Assembly (NCBI GenBank): GCA_016939335.1
Contig: JAFGHC010000027.1
Span: forward strand, 1-60,666
Origin: Candidatus Saganbacteria bacterium
Lineage (GTDB): Bacteria; Margulisbacteria; WOR-1; O2-12-FULL-45-9; XYB2-FULL-48-7
Direction of reading: 5' to 3'
Length of the DNA stretch: 60,666 nt
Shown here: in pieces, positions 822 through 42,568 of the stretch
How positions within the stretch are numbered: position 1 is the first letter of the stretch
Layout of the letters: each line of letters begins with the position of its first letter
Made by a program: the position numbers and the translations under genes
The notes under the pieces: generated by a model
What the model saw: the letters and a program-made list of their open reading frames with translations, nothing else
The model's database searches: none
What the model was told of the DNA's origin: nothing

Positions 822-922
822 AAATTCGAAATCCGAATATCGAAATCCGAAGGAAATGAGATCAAAATTATAAATTCGAATTTCGTGCTTATTTCGAATT
901 TCGTATTTCGAGATTCGGATTT
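822..922. repeat. Inverted tandem 7-mer repeat element (AAATYCG-like / CGRATTT-like units), ORF-less
   Basis: Left arm aaatccgaatatcgaaatccgaa; right arm ttcgtatttcgagattcggattt is its near reverse complement; same family as 55308-55447. Confidence 0.85.
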
Positions 923-18789: not shown

Positions 18790-18993
18790 TCAGTTCTCCA
18801 GCAGGTCGTACTTGACCCAGCCGCGTTCGATGATCTTCTTGGTCACGTTGTTCTCGGGCACTTCGTAGATAATGACCGTCTCTTCGGTGTAGAGGTTCAT
18901 CGTTTTGCACTTGGGACATTTGATCTCGACACGGCTTCCGTCCGCGACCTTGGCCAGCAGCCGGTGGCAAAATTTACATCTGAATTCTTTCAT
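18790..18993 (-). CDS. Com-family (phage Mu Com-like) zinc-finger protein
   Basis: EFRC..C.RLLAK....EIKCPKCKTMN. Confidence 0.75.
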   Translation of the reverse strand: MKEFRCKFCHRLLAKVADGSRVEIKCPKCKTMNLYTEETVIIYEVPENNVTKKIIERGWVKYDLLEN

Positions 18994-19628: not shown

Positions 19629-19655
19629 TTATCGGCCCCCCGTTTGAAAAATTTC
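19629..19655 (-). promoter_or_regulatory. sigma28/FliA-like promoter
   Basis: GAAATTTT-N11-GCCGATAA. Confidence 0.75.
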
Positions 19656-19678
19656 ACTTAATTTGTTAATATAACTAA

Positions 19679-20214
19679 CAACACGTCCGCTAGAAACCTT
19701 TAAGTGACCGGCGGACTACGACACGGTCCGACTGCGCCGGACCTACAACTAACAACTTCCGGAGGCGTTAGCGTGTCCTTCAGATTCCTAGATTTCCCGG
19801 TCTACAAAGAAATCAAAAAATACATTGGAGATGTTTACTCGCTCTCCTCAAATTTCCCCAAAGACGAACAATTTGGCTTAACCAATCAATTGCGCCGGGC
19901 CGCGACCTCGATCGCCCTGAATTTGGCCGAAGGATCGGACCGGGGTTCGGACCAAGACTTTAAACGCTTCATCCAAATGGCCATTGGGTCGGTGAACGAA
20001 ACGGTCGCAGTTTTAGATATTGCTCTTGAAATGGGCTTCATTAGCCAAGAAAATTACGCTATAATAATAAAGAAAGCTGAAAGCATTGTTAAGCAATTAT
20101 CCGGTTTTCGGCAATCTTTAAAAGGCCGTTAGTTGTTAGTTGTAGCGAGGCCGCCGCAGGCGGACGAGCGTGTCGTAAGTTGTCAGTCGTAGTTCGCCGC
20201 AGGCGAACGTGTTG
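19679..20214. mobile_element. IVS-like element: nested inverted repeats enclosing a four-helix-bundle gene
   Basis: Pairs 19743-57/20131-45 (15 bp perfect), 19717-25/20169-77, 19679-86/20207-14, with side hairpins. Confidence 0.7.
19773..20132 (+). CDS. Four helix bundle protein (23S rRNA IVS / TIGR02436-like)
   Basis: F.DFPVY, FPKDEQFGLTNQLRRAATSIALNLAEG, F.RFI.MAIGS..E; GGAGG RBS with GTG start. Confidence 0.92.
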   Translation: MSFRFLDFPVYKEIKKYIGDVYSLSSNFPKDEQFGLTNQLRRAATSIALNLAEGSDRGSDQDFKRFIQMAIGSVNETVAVLDIALEMGFISQENYAIIIKKAESIVKQLSGFRQSLKGR

Positions 20215-20218
20215 ATAC

Positions 20219-20291
20219 GCGGGAGTAGCTCAGTTGGTAGAGCATCACCTTGCCAAGGTGAGGGTCGCCGGTTCGAGCCCGGTCTCCCGCT
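20219..20291 (+). tRNA. tRNA-Gly (GCC), CCA not encoded
   Basis: GCGGGAG acceptor stem, D-arm AGCTCAGTTGGTAGAGC, anticodon loop TTGCCAA, GGTTCGAGCCC T-arm. Confidence 0.97.
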
Positions 20292-20357
20292 TTTAACTTG
20301 TAACTTACGAACTTATAACCAATAACTGAAAGAATAACTGAAAGGGGAAATTTTATT

Positions 20358-27817: not shown

Positions 27818-29359
27818 CTACTTTCTGATATAAACCTTCTCGAGATGCAGGAACAACCCCGCCGGCCCGGGCTTTGACAAACCACCCACCCGCTCCCCGA
27901 CACCGGTCACGATCTTCGGGTACCAGAGGAAGATATACGGCTGGTCGGCGGCGATCAGGTCCCAGAGCCGCCGGTAGACCGCCCGCCGCCGGTTTCTGGC
28001 AATGGTCGTCCGCCCCTGCTCCAGCAGCTTGTCGGCTGCGGGATTTTTATACTTTACGAAATTAAACCCTTTCGGATACTGGCTGGAGTGCCAGATCGCA
28101 TAAGCGTCGGGATCGAGCCCGAGCGACCAGCCCATGATCACCGCCTCAAAATCTTTGGGATCTTTCGGCGCGTTGACGATCTTGAGCAGGGCCGACCATT
28201 CAAGGACGCGGACATTGACCTTGACGCCGACCTTTTTGTATTGCTGCTGGAGGATGACCGCCGCTTTTTCCCGCTCTTTATTCCCCTGGTTGACGAGAAT
28301 GGTGAACTCGAGATTCTCTTTGCCCGCCTCTTTCAACAGGCGTCTGGCCTTCTCCGGATCGTAATCATATTTCGGCACCCGGTCGGAATACGCCCAGGAG
28401 ACCGGGGCCGACGGGGCGTAGGCCGGTGAAGCGAGTCCCCGGAAGATCAGGCCGACCAGCTGTTTCTTGTCGGTGGCGTAAGCCAGCGCCTGCCGGACGC
28501 GCCGGTCGGCGAACTTGGGATTGGCCAGATTGAAACCAAGGTAAGTGTAGAGCAGCGCGTCATATTCATAAACGTTGACCCCTCTGGCCGCCTTCATCCG
28601 CGTGTAGTCTTTGGGCGGGATGTCGGCCTCGTCGATCTCGCCGGCCTCCAGGGCGACCAGGCGCGAATTCGCGTCCGGGATCTCTTTGTAAACGATCTGT
28701 TTGAGAAGCGGTTTGCCCAAATAGTAGCCGGAATTGCGCTCGACCGTCACGCGGTCGCCGGCGCGCCACTCCTTGAAGATGAACGGCCCGGTGCCGACGG
28801 GGCGGCGGTTAAACCTGGCCCTGTTAATGTCTTTATCGGCCAGCAAATGTTTGGGGATAATGCCGATCCCCGCGTTGATCAGGAACGGAGCGAACGGCTG
28901 CGGCAGGAGCGCCTGGACGGTGTGCCGATCAACGACGCGGAACTCGATCGGCTTGCCGTCGATGATGAAATCGCTCCGGCGGACGGAGTTGACCTTGGGG
29001 TTAAGGATCGAATCAAAAGTGAATTTGACGTCCGCAGCCGTAAATGGAACGCCGTCATGCCACCTGACATTTTTGCGCAGATGGAAAGTCCAGGTTTTGC
29101 CATCCGGAGAAACCGCCCAGCGCTCCGCCAGGTCGGGGACCATCTCCAGCTTTTCGTTAACGGTCACCAGCCCGCTGAAGATCGCGCCTTCGACCGCCGA
29201 GGAAACGCTGTCGGTGGAGAGGATCGGGTTGAGGACGGAGACTTCGCCCCCGAGGCTGAAGCGAAGGGCTCCCTCAGGATCAGGGAGTGACAGGGAGTGG
29301 CAGGGATGAGCAAGGATGAGCAGGGAAAACATTAAAACTATGCTTTTTGCCCTGGACAT
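27818..29359 (-). CDS. oppA: Oligopeptide ABC substrate-binding protein (OppA/AppA-like)
   Basis: PDLAE.W.VS.DGKTWTFHLR....WHDG.PFTA.DV, PVGTGPF, D.RVRQAL; start adjusted to MSRAK. Confidence 0.9.
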   Translation of the reverse strand: MSRAKSIVLMFSLLILAHPCHSLSLPDPEGALRFSLGGEVSVLNPILSTDSVSSAVEGAIFSGLVTVNEKLEMVPDLAERWAVSPDGKTWTFHLRKNVRWHDGVPFTAADVKFTFDSILNPKVNSVRRSDFIIDGKPIEFRVVDRHTVQALLPQPFAPFLINAGIGIIPKHLLADKDINRARFNRRPVGTGPFIFKEWRAGDRVTVERNSGYYLGKPLLKQIVYKEIPDANSRLVALEAGEIDEADIPPKDYTRMKAARGVNVYEYDALLYTYLGFNLANPKFADRRVRQALAYATDKKQLVGLIFRGLASPAYAPSAPVSWAYSDRVPKYDYDPEKARRLLKEAGKENLEFTILVNQGNKEREKAAVILQQQYKKVGVKVNVRVLEWSALLKIVNAPKDPKDFEAVIMGWSLGLDPDAYAIWHSSQYPKGFNFVKYKNPAADKLLEQGRTTIARNRRRAVYRRLWDLIAADQPYIFLWYPKIVTGVGERVGGLSKPGPAGLFLHLEKVYIRK

Positions 29360-29833
29360 ATTAATAGTTTGTTGTCTTGTTCTGAAAATAATCATAATAA
29401 TTGATCCAGGTGCCTGTTTTTTCTTTGGCCCTGAGGGATTGGATCAGCCTTTTCAAAATATAAATAGTTTTGCCGACTAACGAGTCGAGCGCATCAAACT
29501 CCTCTCGGGAAATCAATCTATCATCGAAACAGTCCCTGATGTCACCAAGCAACTCGGCGGCAGAATCATGCGAAATAGAAAGATATGACATGTATTTCTT
29601 GATCGACCCTTTGCCATAACCTTCTTGAATATTTTGTTTGATCGACCTGGCGGCGTCACGCATTTGAGAAACCCTGCGCATTTCTATTTTCGGGAACTTC
29701 GTAGTAATCTCATGAACCATCTTTCTCAATTTATAAGCATTTTGCCAGGCGATCAGCTTTTCGTACCCTTTCCCCTCCACAGTCTTACCCTCCCTGCTAA
29801 TCCCTCCTCATCCCCGTTCCTCCCCGTCACTCC
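29281..29833. mobile_element. IVS-like element: about 45-bp inverted 10-mer tandem arms enclosing a four-helix-bundle gene
   Basis: 29281-29326 (cagggagtga cagggagtgg cagggatgag caaggatgag caggga) versus 29791-29833 (tccctgctaa tccctcctca tccccgttcc tccccgtcac tcc). Confidence 0.75.
29361..29780 (-). CDS. Four helix bundle protein (23S rRNA IVS / TIGR02436-like)
   Basis: YEKLIAWQ.A, FPK.E.R..SQMRDAARSIKQNIQEGY, YLSIS.DS..EL. Confidence 0.9.
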   Translation of the reverse strand: MEGKGYEKLIAWQNAYKLRKMVHEITTKFPKIEMRRVSQMRDAARSIKQNIQEGYGKGSIKKYMSYLSISHDSAAELLGDIRDCFDDRLISREEFDALDSLVGKTIYILKRLIQSLRAKEKTGTWINYYDYFQNKTTNY

Positions 29834-42454: not shown

Positions 42455-42568
42455 AATGACGAATTACGAATGTCGAATTACGAATTATTGTGTCCGCCTC
42501 TGGCGGACTTTAATTAATGTGCCGAAGGCACACCTTCATTCGTCATTCGTAATTAGTAATTCGTAATT
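42455..42568. repeat. Inverted tandem 7-mer element (AATKACG / CGTMATT) with internal hairpins, ORF-less
   Basis: Arms aatgacgaattacgaatgtcgaattacgaatt and cattcgtcattcgtaattagtaattcgtaatt; loop contains gtccgcc-tct-ggcggac and tgtgcc-gaa-ggcaca. Confidence 0.85.

Follow-up and report, generated by a model that had tools for sequence, protein, structure and literature searches.

In a Candidatus Saganbacteria genome, a gene of the PF05635/TIGR02436 family is enclosed by inverted arrays of heptanucleotide repeats, and gene and arrays together lie between the predicted promoter of a tRNA-Gly gene and the tRNA itself. The window analyzed here is the whole 60,666-nt stretch of DNA (contig JAFGHC010000027.1), in which the gene and its arms form a cassette of ~540 nt (about 19674-20214) between the -10 box of the tRNA-Gly promoter and the mature 5′ end of the tRNA. 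We lean toward the view that this is an intervening sequence (IVS)-type gene cassette outside rRNA, which enters or leaves a site as a whole and is on the same transcript as the tRNA.

The PF05635 ORF and its arms

The features of the cassette and its immediate surroundings are listed below.

19644-19672, + strand: sigma-70-type promoter, TTGAAA-17 nt-TAATAT with TG before the -10 element, from a consensus scan
19679-19686, + strand: 5′ strand of the outer stem, pairing with 20207-20214 (I4) and also present in the RNAfold structure
19685-19716, + strand: side hairpin B5, GTCCGC...GCGGAC, with CACG and CTAC at its borders, -8.6 kcal/mol
19717-19725, + strand: 5′ strand of the middle stem, pairing with 20169-20177 (I10), recovered in the RNAfold structure as well
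19725-19743, + strand: side hairpin A5, a CACG-hairpin-CTAC module
19743-19762, + strand: 5′ strand of the inner stem, CAACTAA heptads (direct repeats D1), pairing with 20126-20145 (I1)
19761-19765, + strand: Shine-Dalgarno-like GGAGG, 7 nt 5′ of the GTG start, read from the sequence
19773-20132, + strand: PF05635/TIGR02436 four-helix-bundle ORF, 119 aa, GTG start, stop codon at 20130-20132
20126-20145, + strand: 3′ strand of the inner stem, GTTAGTT heptads, period 7, 2.3 copies (I1)
20146-20168, + strand: side hairpin A3, a GTAG-CGA-hairpin-GAG-CGTG module, -8.3 kcal/mol
20169-20177, + strand: 3′ strand of the middle stem (I10)
20178-20191, + strand: degenerate heptads AGTTGTC AGTCGTA (D2, I2, I15), with an alternative pairing to the tRNA trailer in the fold
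20192-20208, + strand: side hairpin B3, GTTCGC-CGCAG-GCGAAC, -6.6 kcal/mol
20207-20214, + strand: 3′ strand of the outer stem (I4)
20219-20291, + strand: tRNA-Gly(GCC), found by ARAGORN; Rfam RF00005, 69.2 bits
20294-20345, + strand: tRNA trailer, AACTTNN-type heptads and a 12-nt tandem repeat containing TAACTGA (D1, D8, I15)

PF05635/TIGR02436 is known mainly as the family of the ORFs found in rRNA IVSs and as a relative of Avd. The original prediction assigned the ORF to this family, and both profiles matched it far above their cut-offs (PF05635, 23S_rRNA_IVP: E 1.4e-31, 109.3 bits, cut-off 33.8; TIGR02436: E 4.3e-31, 107.4 bits, cut-off 24). The AlphaFold model (pLDDT 96) has four helices in an up-down four-helix bundle, with TM scores of 0.93 to XCC0516 (2GSC), 0.85-0.88 to BT_0352 (2RLD) and 0.85 to bAvd (4DWL), so that the structural kinship with bAvd that had been claimed is also seen in the predicted model. 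The 2GSC and 2RLD structures contain five chains each. The GGAGG at 19761-19765 may serve as the ribosome-binding site of the ORF. In comparison with the orthologue of a related genome (G005), the third codon position held 47 of the 66 differences, and 41 codons differed only synonymously as compared to 16 that changed the amino acid; judging from these substitutions, the ORF is evolving under purifying selection.

As described in the accessible part of a recent study, Avd is a basic pentamer that binds a stem-loop RNA encoded beside its own gene (bioRxiv 10.1101/2023.10.23.563531). The cassette has the four-helix-bundle fold in common with bAvd, but it contains neither a reverse transcriptase (RT) nor template/variable repeats. 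The fold, together with weak matches to PF22296 and NF033474, could point to a remnant or orphan Avd accessory gene of a diversity-generating retroelement. We rejected this explanation as highly improbable: the match to the Avd model fell far under the cut-off (NF033474, 21.5 bits against 80), the genome yielded a single RT-like match, a 265-aa group-II-intron-like fragment on contig C41 that has no PF05635 gene beside it, and no template/variable repeat pair was seen in the repeat search.

The ORF had been described as bracketed by three nested complementary pairs with interspersed side hairpins, the structure ending 4 nt before the tRNA. All three pairs were found. The inner stem has a perfect 15-bp core (19743-19757/20131-20145) and extends to 20 nt at 90% (19743-19762/20126-20145), and the stop codon of the ORF is the first triplet of its 3′ arm. 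The side hairpins at 19685-19716, 19725-19743 and 20192-20208 were recovered along with a further one at 20146-20168, and the arm ends at 20214, with the ARAGORN start of tRNA-Gly(GCC) at 20219. The B5 module is also present in an ORF-less copy at a tRNA-Met leader, and the stems of A3 differ between orthologous modules. The fold of 19670-20220, which had been proposed as a check, was more stable than those of 100 shuffled sequences (-183.5 kcal/mol versus -154.2 ± 6.8; z = -4.3), none of which was as good.

Arm similarity was scored by aligning the upstream flank locally with the reverse-complemented downstream flank. The score was 21.5 at this locus, while 1000 random 315-bp intervals of the same genome gave a mean of 9.3, a 99th percentile of 13.5, which served as the threshold, and a maximum of 15.5. 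Together, the shuffled folds and the random intervals ruled out a chance origin of the arm complementarity. In an alignment of eight side-hairpin modules, both sides had changed in 4 of 7 pairs and 96.4% of the cells paired, as compared to 75.1% in shuffles, a percentage that is inflated because the modules had been selected for folding; the covariation score was matched by 0 of 500 shuffles. With lengths of 15, 9 and 8 bp, the stems are short, and they are also interrupted, which counts against the IVS-type reading. An Rfam search returned the tRNA as its sole match.

The tRNA-Gly leader with and without the cassette

A sequence nearly identical to that at 19644-19672 lies 38-93 nt 5′ of tRNA-Gly in relatives that are free of the cassette and 575 nt 5′ of it here; by this sequence comparison, it is the conserved tRNA-Gly promoter. 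No terminator-like site was found in a scan between the promoter and tRNA-Gly. In 13 related genomes of the same family, tRNA-Gly(GCC) is found just upstream of eno. Only one of these (G005, protein 85% identical) has a PF05635 gene within 1.5 kb upstream. In the other 12, the tRNA and the promoter are the same and the leader is 9-64 nt long, without such a stem. Thus, the comparison with related genomes that had been proposed did reveal empty sites. In the Eno tree, two filled genomes (G000 and G005) and an empty one (G007) form one clade (support 86/88). The best reading of these sites is that the cassette was gained or lost as one unit at the tRNA-Gly leader. Its presence or absence between genomes and its varied tRNA contexts suggest that it may be mobile. 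No target-site duplication was visible between filled and empty sites in these diverged genomes, no transposase was present in or beside the cassette among the window ORFs, and no empty-site joint skipping the cassette was found in the DNA contigs of the source sample, which drop rare variants.

Similar cassettes occur at other tRNA genes. The subtype comprises 12 distinct loci, whose proteins are 59-85% identical and which have the heptads and modules in common; for metagenomes, a search gave 80 loci, of which the closest six were examined. Co-oriented tRNA genes directly adjoin 11 of the 12 cassettes, in at least 7 different tRNA contexts. As read from these neighborhoods, the home of the subtype is the tRNA leaders and tRNA-operon spacers of Margulisbacteria/Saganbacteria-type bacteria. 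The ORF-less copy in the tRNA-Met leader of the same genome (C17:9016-9183) has a fold z of -7.2. More generally, hairpin scores above 13.5 were modestly enriched in leaders, with 6 of 42 tRNA/tmRNA genes as compared to 12 of 297 long ORFs. The position between tRNA promoter and tRNA, the heptad arms, the tRNA-linked subtype and the ORF-less copies all go beyond the original prediction.

Leader-trailer stems flank rRNAs, and by analogy the heptad stems could be host structures for processing or regulating tRNA and other operons, with the ORF merely sitting inside. The tRNA trailer is complementary to the 3′ arm of the cassette, and in a fold of 20126-20350 the two pair around the tRNA and enclose it (-82.1 kcal/mol, z = -2.9). 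In addition, heptad periodicity of at least 0.75 was found upstream of 8 of 42 tRNA/tmRNA genes versus 8 of 297 long ORFs, and two reports, in the parts available, propose a regulatory role for heptamer repeats upstream of genes in Beggiatoaceae and Nostoc (PMC4679880; 10.1101/2022.06.06.494920). However, the same promoter and tRNA-Gly do without the stem in 12 of 13 relatives, the arms follow the ORF family to non-tRNA sites in many phyla, and the arm unit co-varies with the protein (see below). We consider the host-structure explanation unlikely.

Inverted arms across the PF05635 family

The present 1.5-Mb genome contains 14 PF05635 copies, and matches occur in 39 of the 41 genomes of this class. 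The original prediction had asked whether flanks of family members show an excess of inverted complementarity, and such an excess was evident in every set of loci scored. Arm scores exceeded 13.5 in 11 of the 14 copies, as compared to 1% of 1000 control intervals, and in a 12th copy the arms lie further out. Among relatives (40 genomes), 40 of 60 loci, which were the best-scoring 60 of ~220 matches, exceeded this threshold, as compared to 22 of 1000 mismatched pairs; a locus with two in-frame stops (G015:C34) was left out. Across many phyla, the count was 35 of 69 (80 loci less 11 dropped for short flanks) as compared to 9 of 1000. Plasmid loci carried arms in 5 of 8 cases by score and 7 of 8 by eye, the carriers including Nostoc, Trichormus, Picosynechococcus, Anabaena, Azospirillum and Riemerella. 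Cultured, non-pathogenic carriers are Nostoc punctiforme PCC 73102 with NPUN_RS35280 on pNPUN02, Trichormus variabilis ATCC 29413 with AVA_RS28115 on plasmid C, and Picosynechococcus PCC 7003 with AWQ21_RS15215 between cmr2 and cmr3. Scores were below threshold for two or three of the 14 copies in this genome and for roughly half of those from other phyla, a point against the IVS-type reading. The local-alignment score was used in place of RNAduplex energies of 150-nt flanks, in which GC-rich coding flanks produce a large background, so that loci and random intervals were not separated.

The arms are inverted arrays of ~7-nt tandem repeats flanking PF05635 genes, including those of cultured cyanobacteria, and their repeat unit tracks protein identity. 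At least three arm 8-mers were common to 27 of 39 between-genome pairs at ≥70% protein identity and to 20 of 54 at 55-70%, as compared to 2 of 558 at 40-55% and 12 of 1489 below 40%. In many phyla, armed genes are also found away from tRNAs, at sites such as those between cas6 and cas4 and between cmr2 and cmr3. Genome-wide, we counted 120 inverted pairs with a score of at least 17, of which 8 enclose a PF05635 ORF and 96 have loops of ≤150 nt; arms were periodic at 7, 8 or 14 nt in 43 of these 96. For several paralogues, the repeat unit is common to 15-19 other genomic loci, and for 6 of the 14 the arms recur at 0-1 other loci of the genome. Counts per arm were made by blastn in place of single-linkage clustering on shared 10-mers, which fused 106 of 126 items into one cluster because the hairpins are composite. 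The best reading of these sequences is a cross-phylum class of PF05635 genes between inverted short-tandem-repeat arrays, with ORF-less hairpins scattered in the genome.

These observations would also suit an element whose arms act as DNA, a possibility to which we give limited credence. On this explanation, we would be dealing with a foldback or REPIN-like element whose inverted heptad arrays form single-strand hairpins or cruciforms that the cognate PF05635 paralogue recognizes; the short ORF-less hairpins would be non-autonomous copies, and transcription with the tRNA would be incidental. The many short-loop periodic hairpins among the 120 pairs, the units present at 15-19 other loci, the link between arm unit and protein, and the presence or absence at the tRNA-Gly site all favor it. 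Furthermore, 49 of 51 hairpins begin with the A-rich arm, an order that looks the same from either strand, and two flavobacterial loci (L140 and L135) have the cassette on opposite sides of the same neighboring gene. Against it, no nuclease or recombinase motif is known in the protein, its relatives with solved structures are RNA/RT-binding scaffolds, and neither the missing target-site duplication nor the 6 paralogue arms with few or no other loci fits well. Moreover, of 54 callable upstream neighbors, 46 are on the same strand as the ORF, and so are all adjacent tRNAs, which fits a dependence on read-through transcription.

RNA-level and DNA-level readings of the arms

Two further observations bear on the level at which the arms act. 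Among arm mismatches, 199 were G·U-compatible on the sense strand versus 183 on the antisense strand (p = 0.44), and 594 were transversions; in the absence of a sense G·U bias, selection for sense-strand RNA pairing of the arms is not visible. In addition, a sigma-54-like sequence, TGGCA-N6-TTGCT, was found 64-154 nt upstream of 5 of the 14 paralogues, out of 21 such sites genome-wide. In at least one copy (C28), this putative promoter, at -64, is inside the loop, the 5′ arm being at -217 to -172. Transcripts initiated at this site would not include the 5′ arm. Both results count toward the DNA-level explanation, and they leave room for a DNA-level role of the arms. Thus, the earlier claim of an IVS-like RNA element outside rRNA held in part: the ORF-in-stem architecture, the arms and the empty sites speak for it, whereas the lack of G·U bias and the sigma-54-like promoters speak against it. 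The cassette was covered in the contigs of one DNA run only. In two metatranscriptomes of the same study, the RNA contigs were tRNA-like or eno-like stretches of other organisms, and these blanks at the cassette are neutral with regard to its expression or excision.

In the IVS-type reading that we prefer, the element would comprise a PF05635 ORF preceded by a ribosome-binding site of its own and, on either side, arms that are part of the element, namely inverted AACTAAC/GTTAGTT heptads and paired GC-rich side hairpins (CACG-hairpin-CTAC on the 5′ side, GTAG-hairpin-CGTG on the 3′ side). The tRNA promoter would give rise to one RNA with the 5′ arm, the ORF, the 3′ arm and the tRNA, in which the arms would fold into a branched stem. 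RNase P would free the tRNA, and RNase III, whose gene (rnc) is present in the genome, would probably cut the long stem. Because of these two cuts, the host RNA would be unharmed and the ORF would be released as a stem-closed mRNA. The protein, a pentamer like Avd, would probably bind its own arms. If the arrangement of an ORF between inverted arrays of its own repeat is general, tRNA leaders and spacers join rRNA as homes of IVS-type elements, and PF05635 genes inside cas and other operons, which have been scored as 'associated', would be accounted for.

In the accessible part of a report on Coxiella, ORF-bearing IVSs have an S23p/PF05635 ORF in the loop of a terminal-inverted-repeat stem, and the IVS of Coxiella spans 444 nt, contains an S23p ORF, is closed by a 28-bp terminal stem and is cut by RNase III in the middle of that stem (PMC4990558). 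Within the bounds of these partial sources, the cassette resembles the 23S rRNA IVSs of Coxiella burnetii and Leptospira in the family of the ORF in the loop, the element size (430-540 nt), the complementary termini that close a stem, the location in a stable-RNA unit where normal maturation can remove the element, the existence of ORF-less and ORF-bearing forms, and the sporadic distribution (PMC4990558; for CPR rRNA insertions, bioRxiv 10.1101/2024.02.27.582315). In contrast, the cassette occupies a tRNA 5′ leader (its relatives, tRNA-operon spacers) and not an rRNA helix, and its arms are heptad arrays with four-way-junction-like side hairpins instead of a single 28-bp stem. The ORF found here is under purifying selection, whereas that of Coxiella is reported, in the same accessible part, to be decaying (PMC4990558), and RNase III cleavage, described for the Coxiella IVS, is a prediction for the cassette. 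A resident IVS in the organism's own 23S rRNA was also looked for, and no LSU/23S rRNA gene is present in the assembly.

Other repeat systems offer partial parallels. In REP/REPIN-RAYT systems, a single-copy gene lies between inverted short repeats that recur as small genomic hairpins, and the RAYT gene subfamilies each have a different repeat sequence. Similarly, the PF05635 gene is flanked by its own dispersed repeat, inverted, with a unit that varies with the protein. However, the protein is not a Y1 (HUH) transposase, its only matches being PF05635 and bAvd-like and without a known catalytic motif, and the repeats are tandem heptads and not a single palindrome. As in MITEs or terminal-inverted-repeat transposons, there are several copies, including non-coding ones, with presence or absence between genomes. 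The Correia elements of Neisseria are transcribed MITE hairpins cut by RNase III, and eukaryotic Foldback elements have inverted termini of tandem sub-repeats and mostly non-coding copies. The cassette is like the former as a short inverted-repeat element that is probably co-transcribed with host genes, and like the latter in having arms of tandem sub-repeats and mostly non-coding copies, by analogy only; there is no transposase here.

To our knowledge, the very common PF05635/TIGR02436 family has been without an assigned function for some thirty years, and the heptamer repeats known from cyanobacteria and giant sulfur bacteria have been orphans for just as long. If it is a general rule that an ORF lies between inverted arrays of its own short repeat, in a unit that moves or is lost as a whole and is lodged in processed transcripts, these two puzzles merge into a single testable question, namely whether each protein binds the repeat that flanks its gene and whether it does so in RNA or in DNA. 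We tentatively propose that the heptamer repeats of bacteria may have their long-sought partners in the PF05635 'IVS proteins', each paralogue recognizing its own ~7-nt unit in a self-propagating or self-maintaining system, although we think this less than likely. The gene would lie between inverted arrays of its own unit, as in REPIN/RAYT systems without a known transposase, ORF-less heptad hairpins would be seeded through the genome, and lodging would be preferred in processed transcripts, such as rRNA helices, tRNA leaders and spacers, and operon spacers like that between cas6 and cas4. If true, rRNA IVSs, STRR/TAACTGA-type repeats (in cyanobacteria, Beggiatoaceae and Bacteroidetes) and the tRNA-flanking heptads seen here would have one origin.

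The STRR sequences of cyanobacteria are heptamer direct repeats. Our literature search, mostly of open-access sources, returned no account of PF05635 genes flanked by inverted tandem repeats, none of comparable cassettes next to tRNA genes, and none that links PF05635 to heptamer repeats. PMC4679880 contains none of the terms 'four helix', 'S23' and 'intervening sequence'. In the available portions of two reports, TAACTGA repeats are described from Beggiatoaceae, cyanobacteria and Bacteroidetes (PMC4679880) and heptamer repeats from Nostoc (10.1101/2022.06.06.494920). To that extent, the published repeats are direct and without a known partner, whereas those described here are inverted pairs around a PF05635 gene. 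They are alike in being tandem 7-nt units, intergenic and just upstream of genes, in cyanobacteria and Bacteroidetes, and TAACTGA itself is present in the tRNA trailer of the window (20321-20344) and in the arms of relatives.

Anatomy of the tRNA-linked cassette

The original prediction placed a gene of a four-helix-bundle family inside three nested complementary pairs, with side hairpins between them, in a structure ending 4 nt before a tRNA gene. Each of these elements was found at its predicted position, the hairpins on both sides.

19644-19672: sigma-70-type promoter (TTGAAA-17-TAATAT, with TG)
19679-19686 / 20207-20214: outer stem, complementary pair
19685-19716 and 19725-19743: 5'-side local hairpins between the nested stems
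19717-19725 / 20169-20177: middle stem, complementary pair
19743-19757 / 20131-20145: inner stem, 15 bp perfect (as 19743-19762 / 20126-20145, 20 nt at 90%)
19773 (GTG) to 20130-20132 (stop): ORF, 119 aa
20146-20168 and 20192-20208: 3'-side local hairpins between the nested stems
20219 (start): tRNA-Gly(GCC), 4 nt past the last complementary pair

The nested structure is not a product of chance; the flank-to-flank alignment scored 21.5, as compared to a maximum of 15.5 among 1000 control intervals from the same genome (G000), and the fold of 19670-20220, suggested earlier as a check, was more stable than those of shuffled sequences (z = -4.3). The ORF clearly belongs to PF05635 and TIGR02436 by profile match, and its protein was modeled as a four-helix bundle (pLDDT 96) resembling XCC0516 (2GSC, TM 0.93), BT_0352 (2RLD, TM 0.85-0.88) and, in line with the proposed kinship, bAvd (4DWL, TM 0.85). 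Comparison with the orthologue of the related genome G005 indicates purifying selection on the ORF, with 47 of 66 nucleotide differences at third positions, 41 codons differing synonymously and 16 changing the residue.

The tRNA-Gly site and the tRNA-associated subtype

A tRNA-Gly gene immediately 5' of eno was kept in 13 related genomes of the same family, and in 12 of these no PF05635 gene was present within 1.5 kb upstream of it, which provides the empty sites that the suggested comparison was to look for. In related genomes, nearly the same promoter sequence precedes tRNA-Gly(GCC) by 38-93 nt and is followed directly by the tRNA and then by eno; in four of the 12 empty relatives, the leader is 53-64 nt long and contains small GC hairpins only. 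Of the 13, G005 alone had an orthologous cassette (protein 85% identical), and in the Eno tree it forms one clade (86/88), without internal resolution, with G000 and the empty genome G007. This distribution of filled and empty sites indicates that ~540 nt, arms and ORF together, came or went as one piece in the interval from the -10 box to the tRNA's mature 5' end, with the promoter and tRNA-Gly kept intact. The reading of the heptad stems as processing stems of the host is weaker, since 12 of the 13 relatives manage without one.

The order of promoter, cassette and tRNA suggests that the cassette is transcribed from the tRNA promoter, and no terminator-like site was found between this promoter and tRNA-Gly. 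The tRNA trailer (20294-20345) is built from degenerate heptads resembling those of the 5' arm, and when the 5' arm was left out of the fold, the 3' arm paired with this trailer and enclosed the tRNA (z = -2.9). Just before the eno start, 20321-20344 is a perfect 12-nt tandem repeat (AATAACTGAAAG twice) containing TAACTGA, which the available part of PMC4679880 describes as an abundant pre-start-codon heptamer repeat in Beggiatoaceae and cyanobacteria. Separately, a Com-like zinc-ribbon ORF of 67 aa (PF10122, E 1.7e-9) was seen at 18790-18993 (-), and in two relatives (loci L020 and L043) a gene of this kind appears to adjoin the promoter of tRNA-Gly.

Twelve distinct cassettes of the window type were found, with proteins 59-85% identical, common AACTAAC/AACTGAC heptads and the same side-hairpin brackets (CACG-hairpin-CTAC in the 5' arm, GTAG-hairpin-CGTG in the 3' arm). 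All but one (11/12) directly adjoin same-strand tRNA genes.

Contexts of the subtype
promoter / cassette / Gly(GCC)
Gly(GCC) / cassette / Pro
Leu / cassette / Gly(TCC)
Gly(CCC) / cassette / Val
Gly(CCC) / cassette / Cys
Gly(TCC) / cassette / Lys
promoter / cassette / Asp (L197, a metagenome contig; the Asp copy is the tRNA 5' half only)

Because these loci come from related lineages (nearest records: Margulisbacteria, Saganbacteria and candidate division WOR-1) and some have neighbours in common, they do not represent 12 independent events. At L197:1330-1700, a second copy of the promoter and of the 5' 42 nt of tRNA-Asp stands beside the cassette, with an intact promoter and tRNA-Asp ~240 nt downstream of the partial copy, an arrangement suggestive of a rearrangement at an insertion into a tRNA leader. 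Several subtype loci also have ORF-less hairpins with the same arms beside neighbouring tRNAs, and in G000 such a hairpin, its 5' arm near-identical to that of the window, fills the tRNA-Met leader (contig C17:9016-9183; fold z = -7.2). The covariation check was positive for the side hairpin, in which both sides had changed in 4 of 7 pairs among 8 aligned modules and 0 of 500 shuffles reached the score; the paired percentage is inflated, as these modules were selected for folding.

The cassette as a probable IVS-type element

Among documented systems, the ORF-bearing intervening sequence (IVS) of 23S rRNA comes closest. According to the available part of PMC4990558, the Coxiella IVS is 444 nt long, contains an S23p ORF, and has terminal inverted repeats forming a 28-bp stem that is cut at its middle by RNase III. 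By this analogy, the window element is most likely a cassette of the IVS type that resides in a processed transcript of a different kind. The arms would fold the cassette RNA after transcription from the tRNA promoter, and RNase P, probably together with RNase III (the gene for which is present in G000), would separate it from the tRNA, which would spare the host RNA and free the ORF within a stem-closed RNA. Avd, a solved relative of the window protein, binds stem-loop RNA adjoining its own gene, as stated in the accessible portion of the source, and it is thus a reasonable guess that the window protein binds its own arms.

Among arm mismatches, there was no sense-strand G·U excess (199 vs 183, with 594 transversions). 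Of the 21 sigma-54-like sites in G000 (TGGCA-N6-TTGCT, or TTGCW), five precede PF05635 genes by 64-154 nt, one for each of five genes (L010-L014, at C36:23256, C29:23771, C8:3361, C28:13379 and C11:60), inside the cassette loop for at least one copy, and rpoN is present. Both observations weigh against an RNA-only role. A DNA-level explanation, in which the cassette is a foldback or REPIN-like element and the protein binds its cognate repeat, is for these reasons still a serious rival, if an unlikely one in our estimate. For the predicted IVS-like element outside rRNA, anatomy, empty sites and flank complementarity are in favor; the missing G·U excess and the in-loop sigma-54-like site speak against the RNA-only part. 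In full-text literature (few subscription journals, no supplements), we found neither PF05635 cassettes at tRNA genes nor a link between PF05635 and inverted heptad arrays.

Inverted heptad arms across the PF05635 family

Heptamer direct repeats are described from cyanobacteria, Beggiatoaceae and Bacteroidetes, without a known partner or spread mechanism in the parts of the two sources available (PMC4679880; bioRxiv 10.1101/2022.06.06.494920), and PMC4679880 nowhere uses 'four helix', 'S23' or 'intervening sequence'. If it holds, a family-wide rule that PF05635 genes lie within inverted heptad arrays would be of wider interest. Using our own alignment score and thresholds for all comparative counts, we found the expected excess of inverted tandem repeats in family flanks in G000, 40 relatives, other phyla and plasmids. 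G000 (1.53 Mb; 42 contigs, 94.9% complete, with two copies at contig ends) has 14 PF05635 matches, of which 11 had flank scores above the control 99th percentile and 8 exceeded the control maximum; a twelfth has arms farther out, and one is at the end of a contig. Their arms are arrays of ~7-8-nt units that vary by copy. Arms were present at 40 of the 60 top-scoring loci (picked by HMM score) from 40 genomes that are related and hence not independent, as compared to 22 of 1000 mismatched flank pairs, and at 35 of 69 loci from Bacteroidota, Gemmatimonadota, Planctomycetota, Bdellovibrionota, Saccharibacteria, Verrucomicrobiota and others, as compared to 9 of 1000 controls. Plasmid loci of cultured bacteria (Nostoc, Trichormus, Picosynechococcus, Anabaena, Pseudanabaena, Azospirillum, Riemerella) were above threshold in 5 of 8 cases, and 7 of 8 had arms by eye. 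The arm unit follows the protein, arm 8-mers being common to 27 of 39 cross-genome pairs at ≥70% protein identity vs 2 of 558 at 40-55%. By a crude open-frame call, neighbours were on the same strand in 46 of 54 cases upstream and 38 of 56 downstream, the usual bacterial baseline also being well above one half. The window has a second cassette:

29284-29833 (-): PF05635 cassette, ORF match 29454-29762, arm score 23.0
~29790-29833 (-): its 5' arm, and ~29284-29327 (-): its 3' arm, GGAGTGAC/GGGATGAG-type units

In three cyanobacterial plasmids (L189, L190, L191), four-helix-bundle cassettes are wedged into CRISPR-Cas operons, between cas6 and cas4 or cmr2 and cmr3, the ~35-nt spacers to the neighbours being the arms, which may explain the CRISPR-associated scoring of the family in surveys. 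Consistent with this, 23S_rRNA_IVP genes in cas loci appear in the available part of an earlier report (PMC3936711). Two Flavobacteriaceae cassettes with 78% identity (L140 and L135) share a neighbouring gene and flank it on opposite sides, a single case that fits movement or local rearrangement.

G000 contains 120 inverted pairs scoring ≥17, of which 8 enclose a PF05635 ORF and 96 have loops of ≤150 nt, 43 of the latter with arms periodic at 7, 8 or 14 nt. Arms of some paralogues recur at 15-19 other loci, and those of 6 of the 14 at none or one. Three ORF-less heptad hairpins of the window (829-922, 42455-42568 and 55306-55449; loops 36-80 nt) have AAATCCGAA- and AATGACGAA-type arms common to PF05635 cassettes on other contigs. 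Heptad arrays also end a few nucleotides before many stable-RNA genes (tRNA, tmRNA), for example at C13:2794, C13:2987, C23:11157, C29:21905, C34:123935 and C38:31860, and upstream lag-7/8 identity reached ≥0.75 for 8 of 42 tRNA/tmRNA genes vs 8 of 297 long ORFs. Heptad hairpins are strongly polar: 49 of the 51 in G000 begin with the A-rich arm, as do 33 of 39 in relatives (33:6), and the bias is weaker in other phyla (21:12); this polarity is identical read from either strand.

A 265-aa group-II-intron-like RT fragment, scoring under the model cut-off, was seen at C41:11116-11913 (L185:2617-3414), near an ORF with a weak HepT-toxin-like match (L185:4900-5256); no PF05635 link was found for either. 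Two further palindromic repeat families, unrelated to the heptads, occur on many contigs of G000 (for example at C35:25418-25837 and C20:35075-35202), one comprising small palindromes of CCCCACACT-AAGTGTGGGG type and the other ~60-nt elements with CTCTCCCAGAGGGAGAGGG at the end.
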